A stretch of DNA of 64,000 bases from an uncultured Acidobacteriota bacterium (GCA_963779415.1 CAVZYA010000001.1:516519-580518), one strand, 5' to 3'; shown: positions 7,467 to 21,214, counted from the first letter of the stretch. Made by a program: numbers and translations. The notes: a model not told the origin generated them from the sequence alone.

Positions 7467-8966
7467 ATGGAGGTCCAAAACATGGCGGAAAAAAGAAATG
7501 TCGAGATCAAGAGCCGACAGGACACGCTGGCTCTGATCACTCCAGAAATCAGGCCCTGGCCTGTCTCACCACCCCCTTCGCCGGAGGAAGTGAAGAAGTC
7601 CTACGCCAAGCGGAAAGCCGAGGTGTTCGGCCAGTGGCTCGAAGACAACATGCGTCTCGAGTATTCCTGGCAGAAACCCGAGGCCCTGCAGGGCCTGAAG
7701 GTCCTCGACATCGGGCTCTGGAGGCTGGGGCACAAGTTCGGCGCCTCCACGCTCGCGCAGGCCGGTGCCGAGGTGATCTGTATCGAGCCCCCCACGGGCG
7801 ACCCGCTCAGACAGCTGACCCCCTTCGGGCGGGAAGAGTACATGCTCGCCGACAAGGAAACCGGCGAGAAGTGCGGCCTCGGGTTCATCGACATACACCG
7901 GAACACGCACTCGGTCACCCTCAACGTCGAGACTCCGGAGGGGCAGGAGCTGTTCAAGAAGCTCGCGGTCCACGCCGACATCGTCCTTGACGGGATGCTC
8001 CCCGGCTACATGGACAACCTCGGGATCGGGTACCGGGACCTCTCCCAGATCAACTCCCGCCTCATCTACGTGAACGTCATGCTCCGGGGATCCTGGGGCC
8101 CGGCAAAAGACCGCGTCTCCAAGTTCGGCCAGTGGGAACTGGATCCCTTCGCGCAGGCGACCAATTCGTACATTCACAACACCGGCTTCGCTCAGGACGC
8201 GCTGCCGCGCGGCAAAGGGGGCGACCCGACCCGGGCCGGGTCGTGGCTCGCCGACTATGTCGCCGGCGAGCAGGCGGCCGTCAACGCCCTCGCGGCGATC
8301 TACTGGCGGGAAGAGGTCAGCAATGAGGGGCAGTTCATCGAGGTGACCGGCGCCGAGACCCTGATGGACATCCTCGACTTCGACATCTCCTGGTACGGCT
8401 TCAACGGCAGCATCAAGGCGCGGACAGGGGGATGGGACCCCAACCTGAACCAGTATGCGTGGAACCCGTGCCGGGACGGCTACATGATGATCGGCGGCCA
8501 GAGCGACCGGCTCTGGTACCGGATCGGCATGTGCATCGAGCGGGACTTCCCGCAGTTCGGCCGGCTCATCCACGAAGACCCCTTCCTGAAGGAAGTCGGC
8601 GCGCGGAACGCCCTCCACGCCCTCATCAAGACCTACACCGTCACGACGCGCTGGCTCCGGGAGACCAATCGGATCGAGGCCGAAGAGAAGCTGATGGACT
8701 ACGAGATCGCGGCCGGCCCGCTCCTCTTCATCGACGAGACCTGCGAGTTCCCCCACTTCAAGTACCGGCCCTGGGTCTACAACTGCGAGACGGACTACGG
8801 GACCGTCCTCTACTCGACGGTCAATAACGCCTATCAGATGAGGACGCCGCACCGGGTCAAGTGGCTCGGGAGACGGCTCGGCAAGGACAACTACGACGTC
8901 TACCAGCGCTGGGCCGGACTGGGCCCGAACAAGGTGGACCAGCTCAAGGGAAAGGGGGCGATCTAA
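7467..8966 (+). CDS. CoA-transferase family III (CaiB/BaiF/Frc-like), subunit 1. Alternative ATG at 7482 has the better RBS (GGAGGT).
   Basis: GLKVLDIG...[22 protein letters not shown] matches the family-III N-terminal Rossmann signature. 499 aa. Stop TAA overlaps the ATG of the next gene (TAATG). Confidence 0.85.
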
Positions 8967-10354
8967 TGGCCGGCGAGATCAGACCCAAGAGTGCGGGCGA
9001 GCTGCATGAGATGCGGGCGCCCTACGAGGAGTTCTGCCGGAAGGCCTTCGATCCCGGCAACGAGCACTCGAAGCCCGAGTCGCTGAAGGGGATCCGGTGG
9101 CTCTCCTGCACGATGTACATCTTCACGCCCCACTCGGCCGCGAACCTGGCCGAGCTGGGCGCCGAGGTGATCAAGATCGAGATCCCCCGGATGGGCGACG
9201 CCATGCGGCACACCTCGCCCTTCAACGAGGCGTACCTCTATCCCCTCCACGACACCCGGCCGGGGACGGGAACCGGGTTCGGGTTCACGAACGCCAACCC
9301 GAACAAGCACTTCATCTCCCTCGACTATCACGTACCGGAGATGCGGGAAGTTTTCTACAACATGGTCCGGCAGAGCGACGGGCTGACCGAGCTCTACCGT
9401 CCCGGGACCTTTGACCGCTGGAAGATGAGCTACCCGACCCTCGCGCAGATCAACCCGCGGTTCATCTACGTCTGGGGCGGCGGGTTCGGCTACGGGCCGA
9501 AGGTCTTCGGGGGCTCCTATGACATCCTCGCGCAGTCCCACGCCGGGTTCGCGTCCATCACCGGAATGCACGACTTCATGGGCGGCCACTGCTCCAAGTC
9601 ATCCAACTGGGTCATGGACTGGGCCTCCGGCACCCTGATCACGTTCGGGATCCTCGCCTCCATTCTCTGGCGCCGGAAGACCGGCCTCGGCACCATGATC
9701 GAGTTCTCGCAGGTGCAGACCTCCACGATGTTCACCGAGTATGCCGTTCCTCTTTACGGCCGGTTCGGCATCGTCCGGCAGCGGTGGGGAAACTGGGACA
9801 CCCAGCTCTGCGCCCACGGGATCATCCTTTGCGGCAAATCCGACTTCCCCGATGCCCAAAACCCGCAGGACAAGTTTGACGCCCGGTACGTCATGGTCTC
9901 CGCCTTCCAGGATGCGGACTTCAAGGAACTCTGCAACGTCGTCGGCCGGAAAGACATCTACGATAAATACAAAACGCACAAGGACCGGCTCGACCCCCGG
10001 GCCCAGGTCGACATCTACCAGGCGCTCGAGAAATGGGCCGGAGACAAGACCCGGGCGGCGGTGGTCAAGGTCCTGACCGACGCCGGCATCCTCGCCTCCC
10101 CCGTCATGAACGACCGGGAAGTCTACGAGTACGAGCACTACCGCGAGCGGGGCACCGTCCGCTGGATCGACGACCCCCTCTTCGGCGACTTCCTCCTGCA
10201 GGCCGGCTACAGCGCCGGCCACCTGGCCAAGACCCCGAGAAGGACGAACTGGATCTGGCGGCCCGTTGGCGCCGACAATGTCAAGATCTACCGGGATCTG
10301 CTCGGCTATCCACTGAGCAAGATCGAGGAGTGGTATGGCAAGGCCTACATCTAA
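8966..10354 (+). CDS. CoA-transferase family III, subunit 2 (paralog of the upstream gene)
   Basis: [42 protein letters not shown] signature. Translationally coupled to the upstream paralog, suggesting a heteromeric enzyme. Confidence 0.85.
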
Positions 10355-10368
10355 AAGGAGGCAGCGCC

Positions 10369-10854
10369 GTGTGTGACATCATCTGGTGCAAGAAGCAGGT
10401 TTCCGGCAAGACGTGCAACACCGTCAATTACCTGGACCCGTACAACTTCTGGAACTGGGAAGGCAAGGTGAACTGCGCCGAGTGCGGGACCGTCTACGCC
10501 ATCCACATGATCCAGGGCTTCATGTACAAGGGGCCAACGGAGAAACCCGGAGAGAAGCCCGACATGAGTCCCCTCTACGCCGACAAGCCGCTGGAGGGCT
10601 ACCGGTGTTACCTTCCCGGGATCGAGGGCAGGACGAGGCCTTGGCAGTGCCTCCCCCGACATATCTACCTCGGCCACGCGGACACGGTGAAGTGGAGCCT
10701 CCGCGGAAGACCCGTGCGTGGCTGGCGTCCTCAGCCGAAGTCTGCAGGCATCGCTGGAAGCTTCGGCCACAAGTGGGATATCGAGAAACTCTCACCGGAG
10801 ATCTGGGCCGAATACCAGGAGAAGCTGAAGAGCGGGAAGCTGAAGGACTGGTGA
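10369..10854 (+). CDS. Hypothetical Cys/Trp-rich small protein (zinc-ribbon-like N-terminus)
   Basis: GTG start 15 nt after the CoA-transferase stop, preceded by AAAGGAGG. Cys pattern C-x4-C-x8-C...C-x2-C. Coding-like composition, 161 aa. Confidence 0.5.
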   Translation: MCDIIWCKKQVSGKTCNTVNYLDPYNFWNWEGKVNCAECGTVYAIHMIQGFMYKGPTEKPGEKPDMSPLYADKPLEGYRCYLPGIEGRTRPWQCLPRHIYLGHADTVKWSLRGRPVRGWRPQPKSAGIAGSFGHKWDIEKLSPEIWAEYQEKLKSGKLKDW

Positions 10855-10876
10855 GACATTCAGAAAGGAGCGCCAC

Positions 10877-11137
10877 ATGGCCGAGGGAAAACAGTTAACG
10901 CCTGAAGAATTCCTGGCTACGGTTCTCGTGCCGCAGTATGGCCGGGAAAGCGGGCACATGTGCTGGGATTGCAAGCACTTCAAACCGGTTCTGAAGGGCT
11001 CCAAGTTCCCGCCCACCGACACGATCGGCTGGTGCACGCAGATCCACTGGCCCTTCTACTGGTGCGTGACGGACTTCAACGTCGTCAAGAAGTGCTACGC
11101 CTTCGAGAAGGGCATTTACACCTTCAAGAAGTTCTGA
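10877..11137 (+). CDS. Hypothetical small Cys/Trp-rich protein (86 aa)
   Basis: RBS AAAGGAG 8 nt upstream of the ATG. CxxC plus three further Cys and many Trp. Tight spacing with neighbours. Confidence 0.55.
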   Translation: MAEGKQLTPEEFLATVLVPQYGRESGHMCWDCKHFKPVLKGSKFPPTDTIGWCTQIHWPFYWCVTDFNVVKKCYAFEKGIYTFKKF

Positions 11138-11138
11138 C

Positions 11139-11432
11139 ATGGAGGAGAACGTCCGGAAGGAGCTGGATACGCTCACGGGGATGGTGCTGACCTGGAAGAA
11201 GGACTATCTCGGGTCGGTATCATCCGATGAGGACTGCGAGTACCTCGCTCGGGAATTCCTGGACGAGGTGGAGACCCACGTCTACCCCTACGTGAGGAGG
11301 CTCATGGAATGCAATTTCCTCACGGGACCGGAGGCGACGGAGTTTCTCGACTCCTGCTATCGCCAGGCAGAGGAGCTGAACAAAGCCATCCAGCAGCCGG
11401 ACGCCAAACAGGGTGAAACGATAGGAGGGTAA
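11139..11432 (+). CDS. Hypothetical small acidic helical protein (97 aa) ending in ...ETIGG-stop
   Basis: ATG overlaps the upstream stop (TGACATGG). C-terminal diglycine immediately followed by TAA. Next gene starts 3 nt later. Confidence 0.5.
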   Translation: MEENVRKELDTLTGMVLTWKKDYLGSVSSDEDCEYLAREFLDEVETHVYPYVRRLMECNFLTGPEATEFLDSCYRQAEELNKAIQQPDAKQGETIGG

Positions 11433-11434
11433 AC

Positions 11435-11854
11435 ATGGCTGAGAAATGCCGAGTGGGGGTCTGCGGGTACGACCCCGTTCTGGTGAAGGGATACGTCAAG
11501 ACAGGCGAGCGAGCCCTCTGGTGGCACCTGTCGGACGAGGTGTACGAACAATACCAGGTGAAGCCGGGTGACACCGTCACCGGGAAGATCCTGGCGGTTT
11601 ACGACGGGACCGGCACGAAGACGGCCTCCCCGAACGAGCCCTTCGAGTGGAAGTGCCCGAAGGAGTCGGGCCTGGCGGTCCTCCTGCCGCCTGCGACCAT
11701 CGTCAAGTTCAAGCTCTCCGCTTTCCATTTCCTCGAGCTGCTCGTGGAGAAGGTCGGCGGAAAGGACGTCTATCCCGGCAAGGAGCAGATGAGCTTGAAA
11801 TGGTGGCCCGAAGAGAGGATGAAGCTCGACTACAAGGTGCCTTACATCGAGTAG
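11435..11854 (+). CDS. Hypothetical protein (139 aa)
   Basis: RBS GGAGGG upstream. Coding-like composition. Last gene before the intrinsic terminator. Confidence 0.55.
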   Translation: MAEKCRVGVCGYDPVLVKGYVKTGERALWWHLSDEVYEQYQVKPGDTVTGKILAVYDGTGTKTASPNEPFEWKCPKESGLAVLLPPATIVKFKLSAFHFLELLVEKVGGKDVYPGKEQMSLKWWPEERMKLDYKVPYIE

Positions 11855-11948
11855 AACACAGGACGCTCTCTCCCCCGCTCCCTTGAAGCGCCGGTTCCGT
11901 TCGGACCGGCGGGCAAGGACCGGGCGGGGCGAAATCAGTCGCTCACGG

Positions 11949-11994
11949 CCCCCTCTCCTGGCCCTGAAGCACCAGGAGAGGGGGATTCTTTTTC
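11949..11994 (+). terminator. Rho-independent terminator: 13-bp perfect stem CCCCCTCTCCTGG / CCAGGAGAGGGGG, 10-nt loop, then ATTCTTTTTC
   Basis: Perfect inverted repeat followed by a T-tract on the + strand only. Sits 95 nt after the stop at 11854 and ends the OFA/CoA-transferase/small-protein operon. Confidence 0.75.
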
Positions 11995-12048
11995 ATGTAT
12001 CCTCGGCGATGGAACGGTGACATTCGATCGGAAGGGAGAATCGCGTAC

Positions 12049-12291
12049 ATGACAGAACACGACAAGCCGAATGAAGAGGGCTACACGGCTCCGGCGTACG
12101 TCGACCCGGCGATGGGCGACAGCCCCCCCGTCGGAGGCCTGATTGACAACGAGGCCGTCTGCCGGGACTGCATGACCGCCGCCGAGGAAGTCAGCATGCG
12201 GCGCGGGTTTGTCGACCCCGTCTCCGAGCAGCAGGCCAAGGCGAAGGGGACCGTCTGCGCCCGGTGCGGCAAGAAACTCGTCGCCGCGTAG
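12049..12291 (+). CDS. Hypothetical small protein with two CxxC pairs (zinc-ribbon-like), 80 aa
   Basis: ATG at 12049 preceded by AAGGGAG. CRDC...CARCGKK motifs. The upstream in-frame ATG at 11995 lies inside the terminator T-tract. Confidence 0.45.
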   Translation: MTEHDKPNEEGYTAPAYVDPAMGDSPPVGGLIDNEAVCRDCMTAAEEVSMRRGFVDPVSEQQAKAKGTVCARCGKKLVAA

Positions 12292-12334
12292 CGCCCCCTT
12301 CAATCCAGCCGGACGGGGCGGGCGGAATCACCTC

Positions 12335-12748
12335 ATGGCAGAGCCGGAAAAGGCCCCACGACGAGAGGTCGTCGAGCAGCTCCTGCCGCTCGTGGTGGAG
12401 TTGATTCCAGGGCAGGCGGCTGAAGGCCTGATCGAAGTGCTCGAGCCGGGCAGCTACGAGGCCCATTCCCTCCGGACGCTTTGCGAGAATCTCCTCAGGA
12501 GAACGAACTGGAGCGTGGAGGAGCAGCAGGTCCTGGAGGACATCAGGAGACAGCTCGACGGGGGCCGGCTCCTCTGCCGGGGCCGACCCGTCGACGGCCG
12601 GGCTCTGGATCTCGCGGTGGTCGAGGAAACCGAAGCAGGCGAGAAGTATCTCTATGTGCCTGTCCACGCCATCAGGCCGCAGGAAGGCGGAGGCGCGGCA
12701 CCCCGGATCGCGCACCAAAGTTCAGCAGACGAGAGCAGGAGCCTATGA
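12335..12748 (+). CDS. Hypothetical protein (137 aa) and candidate ubiquitin-like modifier precursor: helical N-terminal half, then ...KYLYVPVHAIRPQEGGG followed by a 17-aa tail
   Basis: ATG at 12335 (MAEPEK...). Coding-like composition. The C-terminal half resembles a beta-grasp ending in GG(G), like MoaD/ThiS/ubiquitin tails, with a removable extension. Stop overlaps the next ATG (ATGA). Confidence 0.5.
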   Translation: MAEPEKAPRREVVEQLLPLVVELIPGQAAEGLIEVLEPGSYEAHSLRTLCENLLRRTNWSVEEQQVLEDIRRQLDGGRLLCRGRPVDGRALDLAVVEETEAGEKYLYVPVHAIRPQEGGGAAPRIAHQSSADESRSL

Positions 12749-12951
12749 GTTCCAGGTTCGTAGTCACGGAGAGCACCACGGTGGACGATGTTGCCGCGGC
12801 GGGCCGGCCCGACCCCCTCTACTGCAAACTCGGCCTGGGCCAGCAGGCCCGCGTCCTCGCGGACGAGATCGATGCCGCGCTTGGTGGGGATACGAGCTGC
12901 GGGGGCGCCGGACTCGGATATGTTCCGGACATCGTAGAGGTTGAAGAATAG
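12745..12951 (+). CDS. Hypothetical small protein (68 aa) with internal ...CGGAG... motif
   Basis: ATG overlaps the upstream stop; GGAG 8 nt upstream. Could alternatively be a spurious ORF. Confidence 0.35.
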   Translation: MSSRFVVTESTTVDDVAAAGRPDPLYCKLGLGQQARVLADEIDAALGGDTSCGGAGLGYVPDIVEVEE

Positions 12952-13159
12952 CCTGGAGAATCGCGTGGAGATAGAGGCTCCCAAGGACTGGGACCCGAAG
13001 TGCCCAAAGTGCCAGGAAGAGCTTCGACGAATGCTCGAGCTGTCACAGTCGGTCTACGAGGACCTCGACCACGGCGCGGGGTTGTACCGGTTGCCGTTGC
13101 CACCTTGCACGCACCATGCGGCGCAGGGCGAGCACAAAGACGCAGGAGGGGTCGCTTGA
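12941..13159 (+). CDS. Hypothetical small protein (72 aa) with CPKC motif
   Basis: Overlaps the previous ORF by 11 nt. Weak support; composition only. Confidence 0.3.
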   Translation: MKNSLENRVEIEAPKDWDPKCPKCQEELRRMLELSQSVYEDLDHGAGLYRLPLPPCTHHAAQGEHKDAGGVA

Positions 13160-13199
13160 CAGACCCACTTGTGGCTTTCCGGCCGTCGGGCGCCCCGGC

Positions 13200-14411
13200 A
13201 TGATGGATCTGCTGGAGTCCGACCTGGAGCTCGTCGTCCGGTCAGGATTCATCTACCTGCCGCTCCTCTTTGATCCTTCGGTGGCGACGGAGATCGAGGG
13301 GAACGTGGGCAATCACCTGGTCGCCCGGGACGCCGGCAGGCATTTCGTTCGGACGATGAGCCTGCGATCGCTCGTTTCAAGCTACGAGGCTCTCTGGCCG
13401 AAGTCGTACGAGAAGTTGCGGCGGTCGAAGCTGTGCCGGTTCTCCGGGGACCTTTCGCCGGCCGAAACGGGCGCCAGCGAGCGGCTGAAGGAGATCCTCT
13501 TCTCCGTCATGCCGCACTTCGTCAGGAGGGGGAAGCGGCTCGACAGGAGGCGGCTGACCGAGGAGGACGTGCTGGACCTCATCGAGGAGAGAACCGGACT
13601 TCCCGGCGGATACGCCATGGCTGCAGCCAGCGCTCGGGATCCGGGCTCCATCCGGCAGATCCTCGTGGAACTCGAGGAACGCCGCCCGGCGGCCGAGCCG
13701 CTGCCCGAGGGCCGAATGTCTGCGCGGACCCTCGCGGATTGGCTTCTGCGCGCCCAGGAAGCCCGGATTCTGGAAGAGGAGAGCCAGCGACTGACGGGGT
13801 TTCTCTCCGCGCAGGAGGGCCTCGATACGAGGGCGGCCAGGCGGCTGGCGATTTTGCGGTGCGTCGCGGAGAAGGGGACGTTGGAAATCGACGGATTCGG
13901 CTTTCTGAGGACAGGACCCGGCGACGACTACGTGATCTACAAGCGCACCGGCGAGTTCGCTCTCAAGGACTACTACGGTCGGCTCTATCTGTTTCCGGAT
14001 TGCCGGGTTGCCGTGTCGACGGCCGCTGGCCTCAGGCCCTTCGTCGTGGAGACCTACAAGCATCCGTTTCTCGAGGCCCACGACTCCGGCCAGGAGATCT
14101 GCCTGGGCCGCACCACGGCGCGCCGCTTCTCCGGAGCGGCGGCGATCGTCGAGGCTCTGCAGGAGGGAATCAACGCCCTGCTCCATGGCTACAGCAGCCG
14201 GCGCCGAAACGGGTACCACAGACTGGAGGGACTGTTGAGGTCGGTCCGGCTCCCTGGCCCGGACGATCCCGGCTACCCGGAACCGCCGGACGACAGGCCC
14301 CGCTCCAAGCGGCACATCCTGGACGTCGACTTCGACGACTACCGCATCCCGGCCGATCACCCCGGGATCGTGTCGGGTCGGGTCGAGATCACCAACGACG
14401 TCGTGCCGTGA
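13200..14411 (+). CDS. Protein with a C-terminal UBC/E2-like domain (HPF...GQEICLG) and a ~250 aa N-terminal domain of unknown function
   Basis: ATG-ATG at 13200. C-terminal segment LYLFPDCRVAVSTAAGLRPFVVETYKHPFLEAHDSGQEICLGRT...IVEALQEGINALL mirrors the UBC core: beta-sheet, HPN-like motif, then catalytic Cys in G-x-I-C-L. HPF codons at about 14061-14069, Cys codon about 14099. Confidence 0.6.
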   Translation: MMDLLESDLELVVRSGFIYLPLLFDPSVATEIEGNVGNHLVARDAGRHFVRTMSLRSLVSSYEALWPKSYEKLRRSKLCRFSGDLSPAETGASERLKEILFSVMPHFVRRGKRLDRRRLTEEDVLDLIEERTGLPGGYAMAAASARDPGSIRQILVELEERRPAAEPLPEGRMSARTLADWLLRAQEARILEEESQRLTGFLSAQEGLDTRAARRLAILRCVAEKGTLEIDGFGFLRTGPGDDYVIYKRTGEFALKDYYGRLYLFPDCRVAVSTAAGLRPFVVETYKHPFLEAHDSGQEICLGRTTARRFSGAAAIVEALQEGINALLHGYSSRRRNGYHRLEGLLRSVRLPGPDDPGYPEPPDDRPRSKRHILDVDFDDYRIPADHPGIVSGRVEITNDVVP

Positions 14412-14884
14412 TGACGACGGACGACACCCTCTCGCGGGACGAGCCGCCCCGGGCGACGCCGGATCTGTTGCGGGACATAAGAACCATGCGCGCCGGCAGG
14501 CGGCGGAAGGAGCCCTTTCGGACGAGCCTCTACTCCCGGGTCGGGGGTCTGGTGAGGCGATATGGCCTGGACGAGGCGTTCCTCCGGGCGCTCGACTCCC
14601 CGGGCGGCTTCTCCCGGGACGGCCGTCCGGATGCCGTCCGGCCGAAGGGGAAAGCGCCCTATGCTCCTCCCCTCTTTTTCCTTTCCACGGAGAGAGAGCA
14701 CCGCGTGACGACGGTCATCCTGGAGAAAGTGAAGAGCCCGTTCCTCGCGTACGCCACGTCGCCCGACGAGATTCTCCTCTGCGAACGCCTGTTCCGTGAG
14801 GACCCGTCCCTTTCTCAGGAAACGCTCGCGTGCCATCATTTCGAGACGTTGATGCCGGCCGGAGCGGATTCCGGGCCGGGCTGA
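14411..14884 (+). CDS. Hypothetical protein (157 aa), operon member
   Basis: ATG overlaps the upstream TGA (GTGATGA). Coding-like composition. Confidence 0.5.
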   Translation: MTTDDTLSRDEPPRATPDLLRDIRTMRAGRRRKEPFRTSLYSRVGGLVRRYGLDEAFLRALDSPGGFSRDGRPDAVRPKGKAPYAPPLFFLSTEREHRVTTVILEKVKSPFLAYATSPDEILLCERLFREDPSLSQETLACHHFETLMPAGADSGPG

Positions 14885-14899
14885 GGCGGGAGGAGAGTC

Positions 14900-16000
14900 G
14901 TGGAACGGATTTCGCCGCAACGCCGCCGGGAGATCGGGGAGAGAGTCGGCGCATTCCGCGAGAGCCAGGTCGGCGACGCCGTCAATCAGATTCTCGAGTT
15001 CGACAAGACGCCGGCCGACCTCAAGGCCTACATGGACCGGTTCGTCATCGGCCAGGAGCAGGGGAAGAAGATCATCTCCGTCGGCATCGCCTACCATTAC
15101 CGGAGGCTCGCGGCGGCCCTCAGGCGCGCCGTCGTCGAGAACGGCGAGGAGCTGGGCGCCGCCTTGCACGGCGCGGCCACGCCGAAGGCCAACATCCTGA
15201 TCGTGGGGCCCCCCGGCTGCGGGAAGACCTACACGGGCGAGGTCGCCTCCCGGCTCGTGGGGGTGCCGTTCGCCGTGGAGGACCTGACGAAGTTCAGCGA
15301 AACGGGCTACGTGGGCCAGAACGTGAGCGACATCCTCCTGGACCTGCTGATCGCGGCCGGCGGCAACCCCCAGGTGGCCCAGATGGGCATCGTCTACCTG
15401 GACGAGATCGACAAGATCGCCGCCGAGCCGATCGTCTCGAAGGACGTGTCGGGGCGCGGGGTCCAGAAGGGGCTCCTCAAGCTCGTCGAGGGGGCCGAGA
15501 ACACCATCGACCTGGGCCAAGAACGGATCTCCCTTTCCACCCGACACGTCCTGTTCATCGCAGGAGGCGTGTTCGAGGGGCTGGAAGGAACCGTCGGAAA
15601 GCGGATGGAAAGGGATCGTCTCGAAGGCGAGTGGAAGGACCACCTCCTCACGGACGACTTCGTCGGCTGCGGGATGGAGCGGCAGCTCATGGGGAGGTTC
15701 CCCGTTCGGGCCGTCTACGACCCGCTCAGCGTCGAAGACCTCAAGAACATCCTGCTCGAGAGCGAGGAGAGTCCGTCCCGCGCCTACATCGACGACCTGA
15801 AGGCGTGGAACATCGAACTCCGGTTCACGGACGGCGCTCTCACGGAGGTCGCGAGGCGCGCGCAGCAGGATCGGACGGGCGCCCGGGGACTCATCGGCAT
15901 CCTCCACAAGGTGCTTCTGGAGGACATGTACCGGCTTCCGGGCGTCCACACCGGCGAGCTGGTGGTGGACGAGAAGTACATCCGGGAGCGGCTCGGGTGA
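14900..16000 (+). CDS. ClpX-like AAA+ ATPase (unfoldase) lacking the N-terminal zinc-binding domain and the IGF ClpP-docking loop
   Basis: [22 protein letters not shown], Walker [25 protein letters not shown], Walker [30 protein letters not shown] and sensor-2 TGARGL all align with ClpX/HslU. 366 aa, against ~420 aa for canonical ClpX. Confidence 0.85.
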
Positions 16001-16050
16001 GATTCCGGGGGCTCTCGGAGCTGAAGCGCGCGCCATGCTTCGAGGCTCCC

Positions 16051-16803
16051 GTGGGAACCCTGCCGGAGTGGATCCGGATGACGCGTCACTCCCTCGCGAA
16101 GGCCTTCAAGATCAACGAGCTCGTCCGGTCCGTCCACGGGGACAGCTACGAGTGGTACGGATTCACCGTCGCCGAGCGGAGCGATCCGGAGCTGGTCGTG
16201 GACGTTCTTCTTCCGGCCAACGACGAGAACTTCACGGACCACACCCGCGTCGCACCCGAGGCGATCGACGCGTCGAGAGAGTCCCTCCCCCGGGATCGGG
16301 TGATCAACGGCTGGATCCACTCCCACGGGGCCCTGCCGTACGAAGGGTTCTCCTTCGTGGACGAGAGGAACCAGGAGGCCGTGACCGATTACGTGAACAC
16401 GCTTCTCAGGAAGCCGGTGGCCAAGAAGGAGATCCTGATCAGGGACCTCGCGATCCTCGTCGAGGGCCGCTTCTCGGAGAAGGAGCTGGAGCAGGGAAGC
16501 GTCGCGCTCATCACCGACGCCCCCGTCAAGGAGGCCCGGATCATCGAGACCATATACGGAAGCTTCTGCTTCGCCATCGTCATCGGCGACGACGGCTGGC
16601 ACAGGCAGCAGGTCCATTACCGCAGGCGGGGCATCCTTTCCGGGCAGACGACCGAGGAGAGCCGGGACACCGACATCGTCCTTTCGGGCGACGCGCGGCC
16701 GCTCACCGAGGCGGAGATCCAGATGCTGGCGGACGAGGTCCGCACCCGGATCCGGCCGGGCGTGGCCGTTCCACCCGAGCGGTTCGAGCGGGAGGCGACA
16801 TAA
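16051..16803 (+). CDS. JAB/MPN (JAMM) family metalloprotease, deubiquitinase-like
   Basis: Motif GWIHSHGALPYEGFSFVDE = H-x-H-x8-S-x2-D with upstream Glu residues. GTG at 16051 or ATG at 16078. Lies in the long frame after the ClpX-like gene. Confidence 0.75.
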   Translation: MGTLPEWIRMTRHSLAKAFKINELVRSVHGDSYEWYGFTVAERSDPELVVDVLLPANDENFTDHTRVAPEAIDASRESLPRDRVINGWIHSHGALPYEGFSFVDERNQEAVTDYVNTLLRKPVAKKEILIRDLAILVEGRFSEKELEQGSVALITDAPVKEARIIETIYGSFCFAIVIGDDGWHRQQVHYRRRGILSGQTTEESRDTDIVLSGDARPLTEAEIQMLADEVRTRIRPGVAVPPERFEREAT

Positions 16804-16840
16804 GGTCGGCGGCGGCCTGGGGCGAAGGGACGCGATCGGC

Positions 16841-18118
16841 ATGGAGACGGGACCGGCTCGCGAGAAGGCGCATGACCCGAGGCTGGACCGCCAGCTCCGG
16901 ATCCCGAACTGGAACCAGCGGGCCCTCGAGGAGGCGCGGCTCGCCGTCTTCGGCGACGACGACCTTCTCGCCTCGCTCTACGTCCTCTCCGCCGCGGCCC
17001 TCGGCGTGAACGACGTCGTCCTGATCGCGCCCGCCTGGAATGAGAAGCTGATCGAAATCGCCCGCCAGCTCAATCCGAGGCTCAGGCTGGCCCTCCTCGA
17101 GGGGCTCCACACCCACCCGGTCCTGGAGGAGCTCTTCAGGCCCTGCACGGCCATCGTGGACCTCACCCGCTACGCTCTGGCCAACAAGCTTCTGCTGGAG
17201 ACGGGCTACCGGTCGGGAATTCCGGTGATCCGTGGGTTCTGCCTCGAGAAAGACGGGTGGGAAGGGCTCTCCGTCTTCACCTACAGGCGCGGCCGGGAGT
17301 GGGAGGAGCTCCGGGAGCTCGTCTCGCCCTCCAATCTTCCCTGCGACCACTTCGACGACGCGATTCTGGCCCTCGTCGCGGCCGGCATCGCCCTGGAAGA
17401 AACCAAGAACGTCATCATGGGACACCGGGTGTCGGAGGAGCTGATCGGCTACAGGCGGCCGAAGGTGGTTCCCCTGGAGCCCGACTCCGGCGTCATCATC
17501 GTCGGCGCCGGCGCCCTGGGTAACTTCGTCGGGCTCGGACTGGCCTGTACGGGGCTCCGGCGAATCACGGTCGTCGATCCCGACGTGGTGGACGTGACTA
17601 ACCTCAACAGGCAGGTGCTCCTGGCCGGCGGCGTAGGCCGAAGCAAGGCCGAGGTCCTCTGCGAGCGCCTGCACTCCCTCTTCGGAATCCGGGCGGAGGC
17701 CCGGGTGGCTTATTTCCGGAAGGACTCCGAGCTCGACGCCTCCGACGCTGTCTTCGATTGCGTGGACAACTTCGAGACCCGGGTGATCCTGAGTGAGAGG
17801 TGCCGGGAAGAGGGAAAGGTGCTCATCAGCGGCGGCACGGGCCCTCAGGCCGGACAGGTCATCGTGTTCGATCCGGCGCGCCCGAGCGAAACGCCCGCGG
17901 AGGTTCTGGGACTCTACGAAATCGTCGAGAGGCGGGAGATCGACGCCTTCCGGAGGGAGACGGCGTCCTGCGCCTACCAGCCCGATCCGTCCGTCGTCAT
18001 GACGAATCAGATTATCGGAGGATTGATGGCCGATTCCTATCGTAGGCTCCTGGCCGGAGAGGAGACCCCGAATATCTTCTACGATTCGAGGAACGACGCC
18101 CGGATCTTCGGGGGGTGA
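16841..18118 (+). CDS. ThiF/MoeB/E1-like activating enzyme with a degenerate N-terminal and a canonical C-terminal adenylation domain
   Basis: N-terminal LDRQLRIPNWNQRALEEARLAVFGDDD... lacks GxGxxG. C-terminal IIVGAGALGNFVGLGLACTGLRRITVVDPDVVDVTNLNRQVL is the classic E1 nucleotide-binding motif. Cys in ...ETASCAYQPD is a candidate thioester site. Confidence 0.85.
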   Translation: METGPAREKAHDPRLDRQLRIPNWNQRALEEARLAVFGDDDLLASLYVLSAAALGVNDVVLIAPAWNEKLIEIARQLNPRLRLALLEGLHTHPVLEELFRPCTAIVDLTRYALANKLLLETGYRSGIPVIRGFCLEKDGWEGLSVFTYRRGREWEELRELVSPSNLPCDHFDDAILALVAAGIALEETKNVIMGHRVSEELIGYRRPKVVPLEPDSGVIIVGAGALGNFVGLGLACTGLRRITVVDPDVVDVTNLNRQVLLAGGVGRSKAEVLCERLHSLFGIRAEARVAYFRKDSELDASDAVFDCVDNFETRVILSERCREEGKVLISGGTGPQAGQVIVFDPARPSETPAEVLGLYEIVERREIDAFRRETASCAYQPDPSVVMTNQIIGGLMADSYRRLLAGEETPNIFYDSRNDARIFGG

Positions 18119-18191
18119 TAGAGTCGCGGCGAATTGCGTCCTGACGTGATGCGACGGCGAAAGGCCGCGGATCAGGGCCGAAGGAGCCGAG

Positions 18192-19415
18192 ATGAGCAGC
18201 GAGAACGACGTCGCGCAGACTCAGGAGGACCAGCCGATCGGCTGGCAGCGCCTCGGCGACGTCCTGACACCGCCGATTCCCGGCTTCGAGGACCTCCTCT
18301 TCCTTCCGAGCCTCGACAATCAGTCCTCCAACATCTACGTCCTGCCGGGGGACTGCGTAACGATCGTGGACCCGGGGAACGATTACACGGCCTTAATGGA
18401 GCTCTTCCCTGCGAGAGCCAGGCCCGAGGACGTCAGGAAGATCGTCCTGACGCACGGGCATTTCGACCACGCCATGGGGGCGCTCGAGTTCCTCAGGACG
18501 TATCCGGATCGCCCCACGGGCGCGCGCATCGAGCTGATCCTCCACGAAGGGGGTCCCGACCAGTTCAAGCAGACGGCGAGGGAGCAGGGCGCCTCCGTGA
18601 CCGAGGTACGGGGCGGGGAGACTCTCGAGCTGAGCGGCCTTTCCTTCGACGTGATCTACACGCCAGGCCATACCATCGACGGCATCGCCCTCTATCACGC
18701 CCCCTCGAGGACCGTCTTCAGCGGCGACGTCGTGCTGCCGCTCGCGGTAGCCGGACCCGATCCCAAGGCCGGGGGAAGCCTGGACCAGTACCTGTTCGGG
18801 CTGAGGGCGTTGCTCGCGAGGGAGATCGAGAACGTCCTCCCGGGCCACGGCCCCGTCGTCGGCCCGGGCGGGAGGAAGGTCATCGAGCAGACCTACGAGG
18901 CCGTCATGATGAAGCTCCTGGGGGTCGAGAAGCCGATCCCGTGGATCCAGGGTGCCATTCAGCTCGCGGAGCGCGGGCTGCTGGAAGAGGCCGTTTTCTG
19001 CGCCGGGAAAGAGCTGGCCCGCGACCCGGGGCACGCCAAGGCCCTCGAGCTCAAGGCCGTGTGCCTCAACGATCTCGGGCGGTCGTCTGAGGCCCTCGAG
19101 GTCCTGGATCGGCTGCAGGAGCTGCAGGCCGGCGACGATGCGTTCATCCACGTCGGCAGGGGATATGCCCTCATGGGGCTTGGCCAGTTCGAGGAGAGCG
19201 TCAAGTGCTTCGACGCCGCTCTCCGCATCACGCCGGGCCTGAGGGACGCGCTCGTCTACAAGGGGATGGCCCTCCATCTCTCGGGGAACCACGAGGAGGC
19301 CATGGACATCGAGCCCTTCAGGACGGAGTTCATGGGGCGGTTCCGGAGCGAGCTGCTCAAGGCGTCGCGGCCCGCCCCGAAGGATGGCCTCGCCGAAGGC
19401 ACTGGAAAGGCCTGA
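18192..19415 (+). CDS. Metallo-beta-lactamase-fold hydrolase fused to C-terminal TPR repeats
   Basis: LTHGHFDH (HxHxDH), TPGHT and a later His-Gly; C-terminal half has TPR-like A/L/G/Y spacing. 407 aa. Last gene of the operon. Confidence 0.8.
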   Translation: MSSENDVAQTQEDQPIGWQRLGDVLTPPIPGFEDLLFLPSLDNQSSNIYVLPGDCVTIVDPGNDYTALMELFPARARPEDVRKIVLTHGHFDHAMGALEFLRTYPDRPTGARIELILHEGGPDQFKQTAREQGASVTEVRGGETLELSGLSFDVIYTPGHTIDGIALYHAPSRTVFSGDVVLPLAVAGPDPKAGGSLDQYLFGLRALLAREIENVLPGHGPVVGPGGRKVIEQTYEAVMMKLLGVEKPIPWIQGAIQLAERGLLEEAVFCAGKELARDPGHAKALELKAVCLNDLGRSSEALEVLDRLQELQAGDDAFIHVGRGYALMGLGQFEESVKCFDAALRITPGLRDALVYKGMALHLSGNHEEAMDIEPFRTEFMGRFRSELLKASRPAPKDGLAEGTGKA

Positions 19416-19540
19416 AAAAAGACTTCGAGATCCCGGGGCCAAGGGATAGACTCGCTCGCGTTTCACCCCAGATTCCGACCGCGGCCCGCGTCGCCGGCCT
19501 CTCCCGGCGAGCCGGGCAAGAGACAGGAGGAGACGTCGCC

Positions 19541-21214
19541 GTGAGCACGATTCCCGAAAACTATCTTCCCCCGAAGGAGTTCCAACCCGAGCGGATCTAC
19601 AAGCTGAAGGAGTTCGCGAGCTACCCGGATCCGCTGAACAGCACCGAGGAGCTACTCGACAAACAGATCGCCGCGGGCCGGGGCGACAGCCCGGCGGTCC
19701 TCTTTGCGGACAAGGTCCTGACCTACAAGCAGCTTCTGGGGGCGTCCTGCAAGATCGGGAACGCGCTCCGGAAGCTGGGGGTCGAGGAGTCGGACCGGGT
19801 GTTGCTCCGCTCTCCGAACGTTCCGCCCGCCCTCTTCACGAACTTCGGGGTCCTGAGGCTCGGGGCGGTCATCGTCCCGACCTCTCACATGCTCTCCCCC
19901 CCGGAGATCATCCACATCGCCAACAACGCCGAGGCGAAGGTGATCGTGGTGGCGTCCGCGTTCCTCGAAGGGGTCATCAAGGCGCGCCCGAACCTGAAGA
20001 CCGTCAAGCACGTCATCGTCTTCGGCGGCCAGCCCGAGGAGCTGAAGAAGCAGGATCTTCTCTGCTACGAGGAGCTCGTCGCGAACGAGGCGCCGGCCTT
20101 CGCCCCGGTACGCCGTCCGCGCAAAGCCGTCGCCGTTCTTCTTTACACCTCGGGCACGACCGGCCTGCCGAAAGGGACGGTCCACTACCAGGAAGAGGCC
20201 CTGATCGTTCCGGACACCTTCGGCAAGTACGGATGGAACGTCCAGCCGGAAGACATCATCTGCGGACCCGCGCCCATCTCGCTGGCCGGCGGATACTCGA
20301 CCGTGGCGACGATCCCCTTCCGGTTCGGCGCCGCGGCCTCCCTGATTCCCAAATTCACGCCGGACGGGCTCTTCGAGACGGTCCAGAATCACAAGGTGAC
20401 GATCCTGAGCGCCCTCCCCACGGCGTACCGCAAGATGCTCGAGGTTCCCGGCGCGGAGAAGAAATACAACCTCTCCACCCTCCGCGTCCTGACCGGTGGC
20501 GGTGAATCGCTGACCGCAAAAACCTACAACGACTGGAAGGGGCGCTTCGGCCAGGAGATCTACGAGGGGCTCGGCACGTCGGAGATGATGTACGTCTTCG
20601 TCTCGAGCGTGGTGACGCGGAAAGTCAAGCCCGGCGCGATCGGCACCGCCGTCCCCGGTTACGAGATCCAGGTCATCACCGAGGAGGGAAAGGTCGCCAA
20701 GCCCGGAGAGCTGGGCCGGCTTTACGCCCGCGGGCCGACGGGGACGCTCTACTGGCGCCCGTACGAGGACGGCGGCAGCATGCTGGAGAAGCAGAAAGCC
20801 GTCATCCGCGAGGGGTGGGTGCTCGTCGGGGACTTCTGCACGATAGACGACGACGGGTACCTCAGCTTCGTGTCGCGCCAGGAGGACCTGATCAAGAGCT
20901 CCGGCTACCGGATCGGACCCGAGGAGGTCGAGGACGCTCTTCTCAAGCACCCGGCCGTGGCGGACGCCGGCGTGATCGGGGTTCCGGACCCCGTCCGGGG
21001 CCACAACGTCAAGGCCTTCGTCCTCCTGAGGCCCGGACAGACGCCGAGCGACGAGCTGAAGCAGCAGATCATCGACAGTTGCCGAGATCACATCGCGATC
21101 TACAAGCTTCCCCGCATCATCGAATTCACGAGCGAACTCCCGCGCACCCTCCAGGGGAAGCTCCTCCGGCGGGTTCTGCGGGACAAGGACAAGGGGGCGG
21201 CTCCCGCGAGCTAG
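19541..21214 (+). CDS. AMP-forming acyl-CoA synthetase/ligase (benzoate/aryl-CoA ligase-like)
   Basis: GTG at 19541 with AGGAGG 11 nt upstream. LLYTSGTTGLPKG (AMP-binding box I), YEGLGTSE, and C-terminal ...GKLLRRVL with Lys. Confidence 0.85.
   Translation: MSTIPENYLPPKEFQPERIYKLKEFASYPDPLNSTEELLDKQIAAGRGDSPAVLFADKVLTYKQLLGASCKIGNALRKLGVEESDRVLLRSPNVPPALFTNFGVLRLGAVIVPTSHMLSPPEIIHIANNAEAKVIVVASAFLEGVIKARPNLKTVKHVIVFGGQPEELKKQDLLCYEELVANEAPAFAPVRRPRKAVAVLLYTSGTTGLPKGTVHYQEEALIVPDTFGKYGWNVQPEDIICGPAPISLAGGYSTVATIPFRFGAAASLIPKFTPDGLFETVQNHKVTILSALPTAYRKMLEVPGAEKKYNLSTLRVLTGGGESLTAKTYNDWKGRFGQEIYEGLGTSEMMYVFVSSVVTRKVKPGAIGTAVPGYEIQVITEEGKVAKPGELGRLYARGPTGTLYWRPYEDGGSMLEKQKAVIREGWVLVGDFCTIDDDGYLSFVSRQEDLIKSSGYRIGPEEVEDALLKHPAVADAGVIGVPDPVRGHNVKAFVLLRPGQTPSDELKQQIIDSCRDHIAIYKLPRIIEFTSELPRTLQGKLLRRVLRDKDKGAAPAS

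Follow-up and report, generated by a model that had tools for sequence, protein, structure and literature searches.

Conservation and predicted fold of a candidate ubiquitin-like protein

We analyzed a 64,000-nucleotide stretch of DNA (hereafter the window) from an uncultured Acidobacteriota bacterium (GCA_963779415.1 CAVZYA010000001.1:516519-580518). Its plus strand carries a run of genes at 7467-21214, extending from two CoA-transferases to an acyl-CoA ligase (Table 1). Within this run, the gene for a 137-amino acid (aa) protein is accompanied by genes for an E2-like candidate, a ClpX-family AAA+ unfoldase, a JAMM metalloprotease candidate and an E1-like adenylating enzyme. Very likely, the 137-aa protein is the precursor form of a bacterial ubiquitin-like protein (Ubl) not described before. 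An earlier note on this DNA had proposed three open reading frames (ORFs) with Gly-Gly motifs as Ubl candidates, favoring the 137-aa protein over a 68-aa ORF and a 97-aa protein. All three ORFs and their motifs were present, and the preference for the 137-aa protein was borne out by conservation that ends at the Gly-Gly pair, hypervariable tails, a β-grasp-like structural model, and linkage to E1 and JAMM genes in dozens of genomes.

Table 1. Features of the gene run. Positions are counted from the first nucleotide of the window; locus counts refer to the 84 genome loci described in the text.
Feature	Coordinates	Strand	Loci (of 84)	Remarks
Two family-III CoA-transferases	7467-10354	+
~160-aa Cys-rich protein (p161), then p86, p97 and p139	between the CoA-transferases and the terminator	+
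97-aa protein	11139-11432	+		ends ...ETIGG-stop; excluded as a Ubl
Intrinsic-terminator-like hairpin and U-run	11949-11993	+		13-bp stem; divides p139 from the Ubl operon
80-aa CxxC...CxxC zinc-ribbon protein	12049-12291	+	0	CRDC...CARC; first gene past the terminator; window's narrow clade only
137-aa protein (Ubl candidate)	12335-12748	+
Ubl core, residues 1-119	12335-12691	+		terminates in invariant PQEGG; assigned from homologues, AlphaFold2, Foldseek and hhalign
C-terminal tail, G120-L137 plus stop	12692-12748	+		non-conserved; predicted to be removed
68-aa ORF	12745-12951	+	0	contains ...SCGGAGLGY...; overlaps the Ubl stop as ATGA; clade-restricted small protein
72-aa CPxC...CxH zinc-ribbon-like protein	12941-13159	+	8	CPKC...CTH; lineage-specific accessory
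E2-like candidate, 403 aa	13200-14411	+	74	invariant YKHPFL...GQxIC (Cys301) and Cys268
p158 (157 aa in the window)	14411-14884	+	69	fold unassigned
ClpX-family AAA+ unfoldase	14900-16000	+	64
JAMM/JAB metalloprotease candidate, 268 aa	15997-16803	+	56	GTGA overlap with the AAA+ gene; translationally coupled
E1-like adenylating enzyme	16841-18118	+	70	N-terminal pseudo-adenylation half plus active ThiF domain; Pfam ThiF, 1.7e-35
Glyoxalase-II-like metallo-β-lactamase (MBL) hydrolase fused to tetratricopeptide repeats (TPR)	18192-19415	+	27 (within 10 kb)	Pfam Lactamase_B and TPR; NCBIfam GloB-like; membership uncertain
Acyl-CoA ligase	downstream of the MBL-TPR gene	+
CoA-transferase module	7467-11854 and 18192-19415			CoA-transferase 1-CoA-transferase 2-p161-p86-p97-p139, often with MBL-TPR

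A word-indexed search assigned 264 homologues to the family of the 137-aa protein. A full hidden Markov model scan of 1.8 billion cluster representatives returned 66 homologues, and a scan of one genome per species returned 107 relatives. The hosts belong to Desulfobacterota (Syntrophobacterales, Desulfobacterales, and Desulfobaccales), Methylomirabilota, and Binatia, and include a cultured carrier of the operon, Desulfoferrobacter suflitae DRH4 (locus L081). Gene linkage was counted over 84 genome loci around the Ubl gene, many of them truncated by contig ends. In an alignment of 30 close relatives, P115-Q-E-G-G119 is invariant and nothing beyond it aligns, two of the 30 proteins terminating exactly at GG. 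An alignment of 51 sequences, reaching down to 20-30% identity, contains just two blocks conserved at 90% or above, LPLVxEIxPGQAxEG near the N-terminus and PQEGG. The latter is invariant or almost invariant over the 264 homologues and is retained in 82 of the 84 loci, and the tails that follow it cannot be aligned between loci; they comprise 0 aa in 5 loci, 1 aa in 14 and 3 aa in 11, with a maximum of 48 aa. G118-G119, invariant or at least 90% conserved across these alignments, would thus provide the Gly-Gly pair at the mature C-terminus. In the window, the ORF ends in ...YLYVPVHAIRPQEGGG followed by AAPRIAHQSSADESRSL, a tail of 17 aa beyond GGG, or 18 aa beyond the conserved GG. The tail region also holds the ribosome-binding site and start of the next gene, and its codons show no clear third-position excess of substitutions, the counts being small. 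Ubl precursors are typified by this pattern, in which a flexible stalk carries an invariant Gly-Gly pair and the sequence beyond it is arbitrary or missing.

Several unusual members of the family were observed. In three loci from Desulfobacca metagenome-assembled genomes (MAGs), a 151-aa GNAT acetyltransferase follows PQEGG in frame (L020, 10001-10840; L035; L044; protein P0121), an arrangement that constitutes a Ubl-cargo fusion and recalls the ubiquitin-fusion precursors of eukaryotes. Three predicted proteins (P0155, P0178, and P0182) join the first 40-53 residues of the Ubl straight to the C-terminal part of the E2-like protein, and may be deletion variants, pseudogenes, or assembly chimeras. 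Three other, long proteins (P0160, of 1033 aa, P0174, and P0184) contain 5-12 segments in tandem that are similar to residues 6-58 of the Ubl family, with the motif ...LVAExxPGKSADDLL....

An AlphaFold2 model of the 137-aa protein, built on the 51-sequence alignment, gave a single domain with a mean predicted local distance difference test (pLDDT) score of 84.8, exceeding 90 over residues 20-115. The modeled elements (β19-25, β32-36, α46-55, α61-74, β78-81, a short helix at 90-93, β95-98, and β104-113) follow the β-grasp order with one inserted helix, and the predicted domain takes up the whole protein. The earlier note had expected the strand-rich part within residues 70-120; the predicted order of elements agrees with a β-grasp, but the modeled domain begins well upstream, with the strands at 19-25 and 32-36. 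The PQEGG tail lies outside the last strand, and the non-conserved tail beyond it (G120-L137) has pLDDT values of 55-58. In a Foldseek comparison of the model with the PDB, the list was headed by UBL3 and Smt3 (E ≈ 0.045, probability 0.75; below significance), and approximately 20 of the top 50 matches were Ubl or β-grasp proteins, including UBL3, Smt3, the TBK1 ubiquitin-like domain, USP7, Nip45, ubiquitin, parkin, ATG5, and EccD. Profile-profile comparison using hhalign, against a reference set of ubiquitin, NEDD8, SUMO, MoaD, ThiS, and Urm1, paired 78-RLLCRGRPV-DGRALDLAVV-96 with residues 42-62 of ubiquitin (the β3-β4 segment), in a register that agrees with the model.

On the other side of the balance, and counting against a Ubl assignment, no Foldseek match reached E ≤ 0.001 (best E 0.045, TM-scores 0.36-0.53), and the hhalign alignment to ubiquitin spans 19 columns at E 0.089, below significance. 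Sequence searches of Pfam, NCBIfam, PADLOC, and the PDB gave no match for the 137-aa protein, and none of the 51 family members matched ThiS/MoaD or any other Pfam or NCBIfam model. Because the Foldseek, hhalign, and family searches stay below threshold or empty, we grade the modeled β-grasp fold as probable rather than proven.

Candidate partner enzymes and operon structure

The window proteins were searched against the 84 loci using tblastn (Table 1). A dedicated E1 is encoded alongside the Ubl in most of them, and also in locus L092. Its adenylation motifs are intact, with GxGALGxF, TNLNRQ, DxVDN, and a single cysteine, Cys376, invariant in 58 homologues. ThiF was the one domain recognized, a rhodanese domain and CxxC pairs being absent. 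We consider it likely that this neighboring E1 acts on the GG end of the 137-aa protein and activates it as a Ubl. The E1 itself ends in ...IFGG, and was considered as its own Ubl and rejected; homologues end in DRRF or DERI, and since the GG ending occurs in this genome alone, it is probably due to chance.

The JAMM candidate carries a complete zinc motif (E...HxH...S..D), with E53, H109-S-H111, S120, and D123 invariant in 24 homologues. Pfam Prok-JAB was weakly matched by 11 of these 24 (best E = 0.0025), and a search of the JAB profile against PDB sequences found nothing. In 74 of the 84 loci, the E2-like gene directly follows the Ubl gene. E2 enzymes are marked by an HPN-type motif with the catalytic cysteine some 8-12 residues beyond it; the invariant YKHPFL-x6-Q-x-I-C301 conforms to this pattern, and hhalign sets the HPF/Cys301 segment on the HPN...Cys85 segment and helix α2 of human E2 enzymes (UBE2D2 and a four-E2 profile; E = 0.074 and 0.44). 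The predicted order of secondary structures (helix, β-meander, Cys loop, and helix) is compatible with a ubiquitin-conjugating (UBC) fold. As the hhalign E-values are weak and Foldseek finds no E2, 'E2-like' is a motif-level call; the proposal in the earlier note of an E2 in the operon holds at that level, through the invariant HPF...Cys motif.

Two conserved genes that the earlier note had missed encode the ClpX-like AAA+ protein and p158. The AAA+ protein scored 258 bits against the NCBIfam ClpX model, below its cut-off, and 195 bits against E. coli ClpX. Alignment with the latter begins after the zinc-binding domain and is interrupted by gaps precisely where the RKH and IGF loops would lie; the GYVG loop is retained. 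With the IGF loops deleted, the AAA+ ring cannot dock ClpP in that way. The distance from the AAA+ stop to the JAB start is 0-6 nt in 55 of 55 loci, and the p158 gene, which had no match in Pfam or NCBIfam, is always immediately upstream of the AAA+ gene. A 118-aa coiled-coil protein (p118), absent from the window and with a weak Rx_N-like match, is encoded in 46 of the 84 loci (for example L003, 4802-5158), mostly directly upstream of E1. Common gene orders are [p118-E1]-Ubl-E2-like-p158-AAA-JAB and Ubl-E2-like-p158-AAA-JAB-E1. In L092, from a low-GC organism, the Ubl shows only 38% identity, and the six genes, E1 included, are in identical order.

Minimal loci (L001/L002, L007, and L016) contain just Ubl-p158-AAA-E1 within 9-10 kb, indicating that the unfoldase and p158 are at least as central as the E2-like protein and JAB. 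This tightest core across loci could also suggest that the 137-aa protein is no modifier at all, and instead serves the ClpX-like ATPase specifically, as its adaptor, substrate, or regulator, with PQEGG as a binding motif or degron and with tails that vary just because the protein comes to its end there; sub-threshold fold matches to Ubls would suit such a role. The near-universal linkage to an E1 with intact catalytic motifs would then be left unexplained, as would the invariant Gly-Gly with a freely varying next residue, the genes that stop at GG, and the GNAT fusion after GG, and we regard this explanation as highly improbable. Departures from the common arrangements were also seen. MAG bin435 (CP070843.1) carries two Ubl copies (L017 and L055), one in a full operon and the second with a fragmentary E2-like match and an AAA+ match on the opposite strand ~3.5 kb upstream; L018 has Ubl-AAA-JAB, with neither an E2-like nor a p158 gene.

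The order of the operon is maintained across whole orders of Desulfobacterota. Genes flanking it in the inspected loci are housekeeping or metabolic (aspartate kinase, TsaE, PdxJ, and CoA-transferases), and searches of 72,556 plasmids and 50,697 phages returned no homologue of the Ubl. These observations bear on the possibility of an anti-phage system of the Bil type, in which the same biochemistry would serve infection-triggered conjugation to phage proteins, with the AAA+ and MBL proteins as effectors or regulators. The gene composition does parallel BilABCD (PMC11601603). The E1 domain matches the PADLOC E1-E2 models. In addition, '6A-MBL' (annotated by NCBIfam as anti-phage) is a known pairing of an E2-E1-JAB triad with an MBL, and the E1 matches that model weakly, at 45 bits. 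However, it is the generic E1 domain alone that matches; the Ubl, E2-like, JAB, p158, and MBL proteins match nothing in PADLOC-DB 2.0.0, which may predate the Bil models. The MBL here is glyoxalase-II-like, not of the 6A-MBL type, and the constant gene order across Desulfobacterota orders is unlike that of sporadic defense islands. A defense role of this kind thus appears improbable.

Neighboring genes and rejected candidates

Between the terminator and the Ubl gene lies the 80-aa zinc-ribbon gene, so the Ubl gene is not first in the operon, as the earlier note had supposed. Homologues of the 72-aa zinc-ribbon-like protein lie between the Ubl and E2-like genes in loci from Methylomirabilota and Binatia and in the clade of the window, and this protein could be a minimal treble-clef or E3-like factor. 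The MBL-TPR gene occurs in either orientation relative to the Ubl, and is also present in the absence of the Ubl operon. Together with the CoA-transferases, p161, p86, p97, and p139, it often forms a conserved module, which was also found in L006, L010, L027, L033, L043, L047, L077, and L089. Across Desulfobacterota, Methylomirabilota, and Binatia, its CoA-transferases share 70-87% identity. The module adjoins the Ubl operon in either orientation, and occurs without it in L089.

The 97-aa protein belongs to this module. The earlier note had assigned its gene to a CoA-transferase operon; the linkage to CoA-transferases holds, within the wider unit of the conserved module, which often lies beside the Ubl operon. 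As a Ubl, the 97-aa protein was rejected. The terminal GG is present in 4 of 19 homologues (the window, L003, L006, and L010) and lost in the remaining 15, with other homologues ending in GE, EEGRHA, KKEV, SAS, ESE, NQS, or NDS. The sequence GGAGGG lies 8 nt upstream of the next ATG (11435, p139), and the p139 ribosome-binding site, AAGGAGG, is always located at the end of the 97-aa gene, where its translation gives ...GG-stop in one clade and KKEV-stop in a second. The diglycine is therefore the p139 ribosome-binding site read in frame, which agrees with the doubt that the earlier note had expressed. Pfam and NCBIfam contain no family match for the protein, and searches of these libraries and of PADLOC with the small proteins gave nothing. 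The terminator that had been proposed to separate this gene group from the Ubl operon is represented by a terminator-like hairpin at 11949-11984, identified by folding (dG -28.9 kcal/mol, z = -3.25); its loop is 10 nt long, and it was hence missed by a pattern scan.

The 68-aa ORF was likewise rejected as a Ubl, contrary to its earlier listing as a candidate, the GG being internal and followed by conserved residues, and the ORF being absent from all the Ubl loci. Its substitution pattern marks the ORF as a real gene; the length is kept in four close relatives, identity is at least 90%, and substitutions by codon position are 3:3:14 and 4:2:15. It represents a small-protein family with two invariant cysteines (18 homologue clusters), sharing ...AAGRPDPLYC...SCGGAG.GYVP.IVE... 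and variable acidic ends. In L089, on a 4.36-Mb contig, the gene lies beyond the CoA-transferase/MBL-TPR module, and genes for a Ubl, an E1, or an AAA protein are absent from the vicinity. Gene callers choose this ORF over the overlapping 72-aa zinc-ribbon gene.

Proposed pathway and relation to known systems

On balance, we favor a Ubl conjugation system coupled to an unfoldase, comprising trimming, activation, transfer, target modification, and unfolding, as an account of the whole operon. The conservation of the family and its break at GG, the gene linkage, the intact catalytic motifs, and the loss of the ClpP-docking loop are observed; cleavage, activation, conjugation, and unfolding are inferred. 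The mature Ubl would comprise the predicted β-grasp domain, including the additional helix, and end in a flexible tail with the invariant ...(R/K)PQEGG. Whatever lies past GG, which is not conserved, would be cut off, most likely by the JAMM protease of the operon. The exposed Gly119 would then be adenylated by the two-lobed E1 and probably passed onto its invariant Cys376. From there, the Ubl would move to Cys301 of the 403-aa E2-like protein, and then to target proteins. The ClpX-like ring, with p158 replacing the lost N-domain, would bind Ubl-marked proteins and unfold or remodel them, while the attached JAMM would recycle the Ubl, in the manner of Rpn11 on the ATPase ring of the proteasome.

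To the sub-threshold fold matches must be added further points on the debit side of this account. The E2 identity is motif-based, and Foldseek (403-aa model, pLDDT 74), Pfam, and PDB profile searches found no E2. The E2-like and JAB genes are not obligatory neighbors of the Ubl, and yet tails of 2-13 aa are present on the Ubls of the minimal loci. Neither a target nor an E3 or a protease partner was identified. CaiB-type CoA-transferases lie near the Ubl in the window and in 12-13 other loci, and an acyl-CoA ligase is nearby in the window and in one or two loci (L003 among them), an echo of the sulfur-carrier operons for pyridine-2,6-dithiocarboxylic acid (PDTC) and quinolobactin. In these operons, genes for a ThiS-like Ubl, E1, and JAB occur together with those for an AMP-acid ligase and a CaiB-like CoA-transferase (PMC1779556, Table 1 row 4a), which provides a precedent for a sulfur carrier of the CysO/QbsE/PdtH type. 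On that reading, the JAMM would trim the Ubl, the E1 would adenylate it, and the resulting thiocarboxylate would feed a small molecule made by the CoA-transferase, acyl-CoA-ligase, and MBL-thioesterase genes, with no need for conjugation.

The gene content of the window, with two family-III CoA-transferases upstream and the ligase downstream, is in keeping with a sulfur carrier, as are the adjacency of the CoA-transferase module in many loci and in both orientations and the absence of the E2-like and JAB genes from minimal loci. The linkage to CoA-transferase and ligase genes is not universal. The MBL-TPR marker was found in 11 of the 28 loci that have full 10-kb flanks, and the module exists in the absence of the Ubl operon. 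The E1 lacks a rhodanese domain and CxxC pairs, and is a single-chain pseudo-dimer resembling the E1s of conjugation systems. No sulfurtransferase or cysteine desulfurase was found in the three Ubl-operon contexts with gene calls, and the Ubl family gives no Pfam ThiS/MoaD signal. The Cys-bearing E2-like protein and the ClpX-type unfoldase, encoded in 74 and 64 of the 84 loci, would be superfluous to a sulfur carrier. We therefore regard a sulfur carrier as unlikely, and retain the conjugation system coupled to an unfoldase as the preferred explanation.

A more specific version of this explanation is put forward tentatively, as less likely to hold in full. The operon might encode a housekeeping bacterial 'ubiquitin-unfoldase' pathway, in which a Ubl conjugated by its own E1 and E2-like protein would be read by a ClpX-clade ring devoid of ClpP docking, together with a JAMM deubiquitinase and p158 as adaptor. 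It would be a counterpart of the Rpn11-Rpt/Cdc48 module. Desulfobacterota, Methylomirabilota, and Binatia would have inherited the pathway vertically, and the adjacent CoA-transferase module may be under its control. The system is directly testable, because a cultured organism, D. suflitae DRH4, carries the operon, and the ...PQE|GG end of the Ubl should yield a diGly remnant upon GluC digestion.

Bacterial operons combining Ubl, E1, E2, and JAB are known from type II cyclic-oligonucleotide-based anti-phage signaling systems (CBASS), Bil, and Bub, and have been tied to phage defense or left unexplained. The operon described here is set apart by a Ubl family unmatched in Pfam, NCBIfam, and PADLOC, by a chromosomal and lineage-wide distribution in major anaerobic clades, and by its fixed association with a ClpX-type unfoldase, encoded by a gene that overlaps with the JAMM protease gene. 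Full-text literature searches, the coverage of which excluded most subscription-journal papers, returned no paper in which a ClpX-like AAA+ protein is tied to a Ubl operon of bacteria. Among known systems, the operon as a whole comes closest to type II Bil and to row 6d of Iyer, Burroughs & Aravind (2006), the predicted trimming of the tail to CysO/QbsE, and the logic of a tag coupled to an unfoldase to Pup-Mpa or Rpn11-Rpt. In type II Bil (BilA Ubl, BilB E2, BilC JAB/JAMM, and BilD E1) and in row 6d, all four components are likewise encoded by separate genes. These include a Ubl that consists of one β-grasp domain, a fold predicted for the present Ubl, and carries a C-terminal glycine, together with an E2-like protein bearing a Cys and an E1 with inactive and active halves. 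In contrast to Bil, the Ubl, E2-like, and JAB proteins of the present operon match no sequence model, the E2-like protein is 403 aa long with a large N-terminal region, and there are additional genes for the ClpX-like AAA+, p158, and p118. The operon is also chromosomal and lineage-wide, lying outside defense islands and mobile elements in the contexts checked.

CysO-Mec+ and QbsE-QbsD/PdtH-PdtG resemble the present system in E1 activation and in the trimming by a JAMM protease of residues after GG, both of which are predicted here, and the PDTC operons also have CaiB-type CoA-transferase and AMP-ligase genes nearby. Unlike these sulfur-carrier systems, the operon has no rhodanese or sulfurtransferase, its Ubl is not ThiS/MoaD by sequence, and it includes an E2-like protein and an AAA+ protein. 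Pup-Mpa and UBact share with it a small bacterial protein tag with a conserved glycine-rich C-terminus, tied to an AAA+ unfoldase. Both Pup and UBact are intrinsically disordered proteins whose C-termini read GGQ/GGE or RxG(E/Q), and their ligation is carried out by the glutamine-synthetase-like PafA/Dop. The tag described here differs in being a confidently predicted folded domain accompanied by an E1, with no PafA/Dop-like gene in the inspected loci.

The AAA+ protein resembles ClpX in scoring across the whole AAA+ module and in its Walker motifs and GYVG pore-1 loop, and differs from it in having neither the N-terminal zinc-binding domain nor the RKH and IGF loops. With eukaryotic ubiquitin, the Ubl shares a β3-β4 motif similar to RL(I/L)xxG(K/R)x(L/I)xDGxxLxxY, and as in ubiquitin precursors, its GG is followed by a residue, tail, or fused protein that is predicted to be disposable (Ub-L40/S27a as compared with Ubl-GNAT). 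As in Rpn11-Rpt and Cdc48, a JAMM protease is genetically welded to an AAA+ unfoldase. Compared with these, the ATPase here belongs to the ClpX clade rather than Rpt/PAN/Cdc48 and lacks the IGF loop, and there is no evident 20S or ClpP partner and no recognized E3. If conjugation does take place, the operon would exemplify Ubl tagging in bacteria, with the tag read by an AAA+ machine into which a deubiquitinase is built, and would bear on the origin of ubiquitin-proteasome logic.

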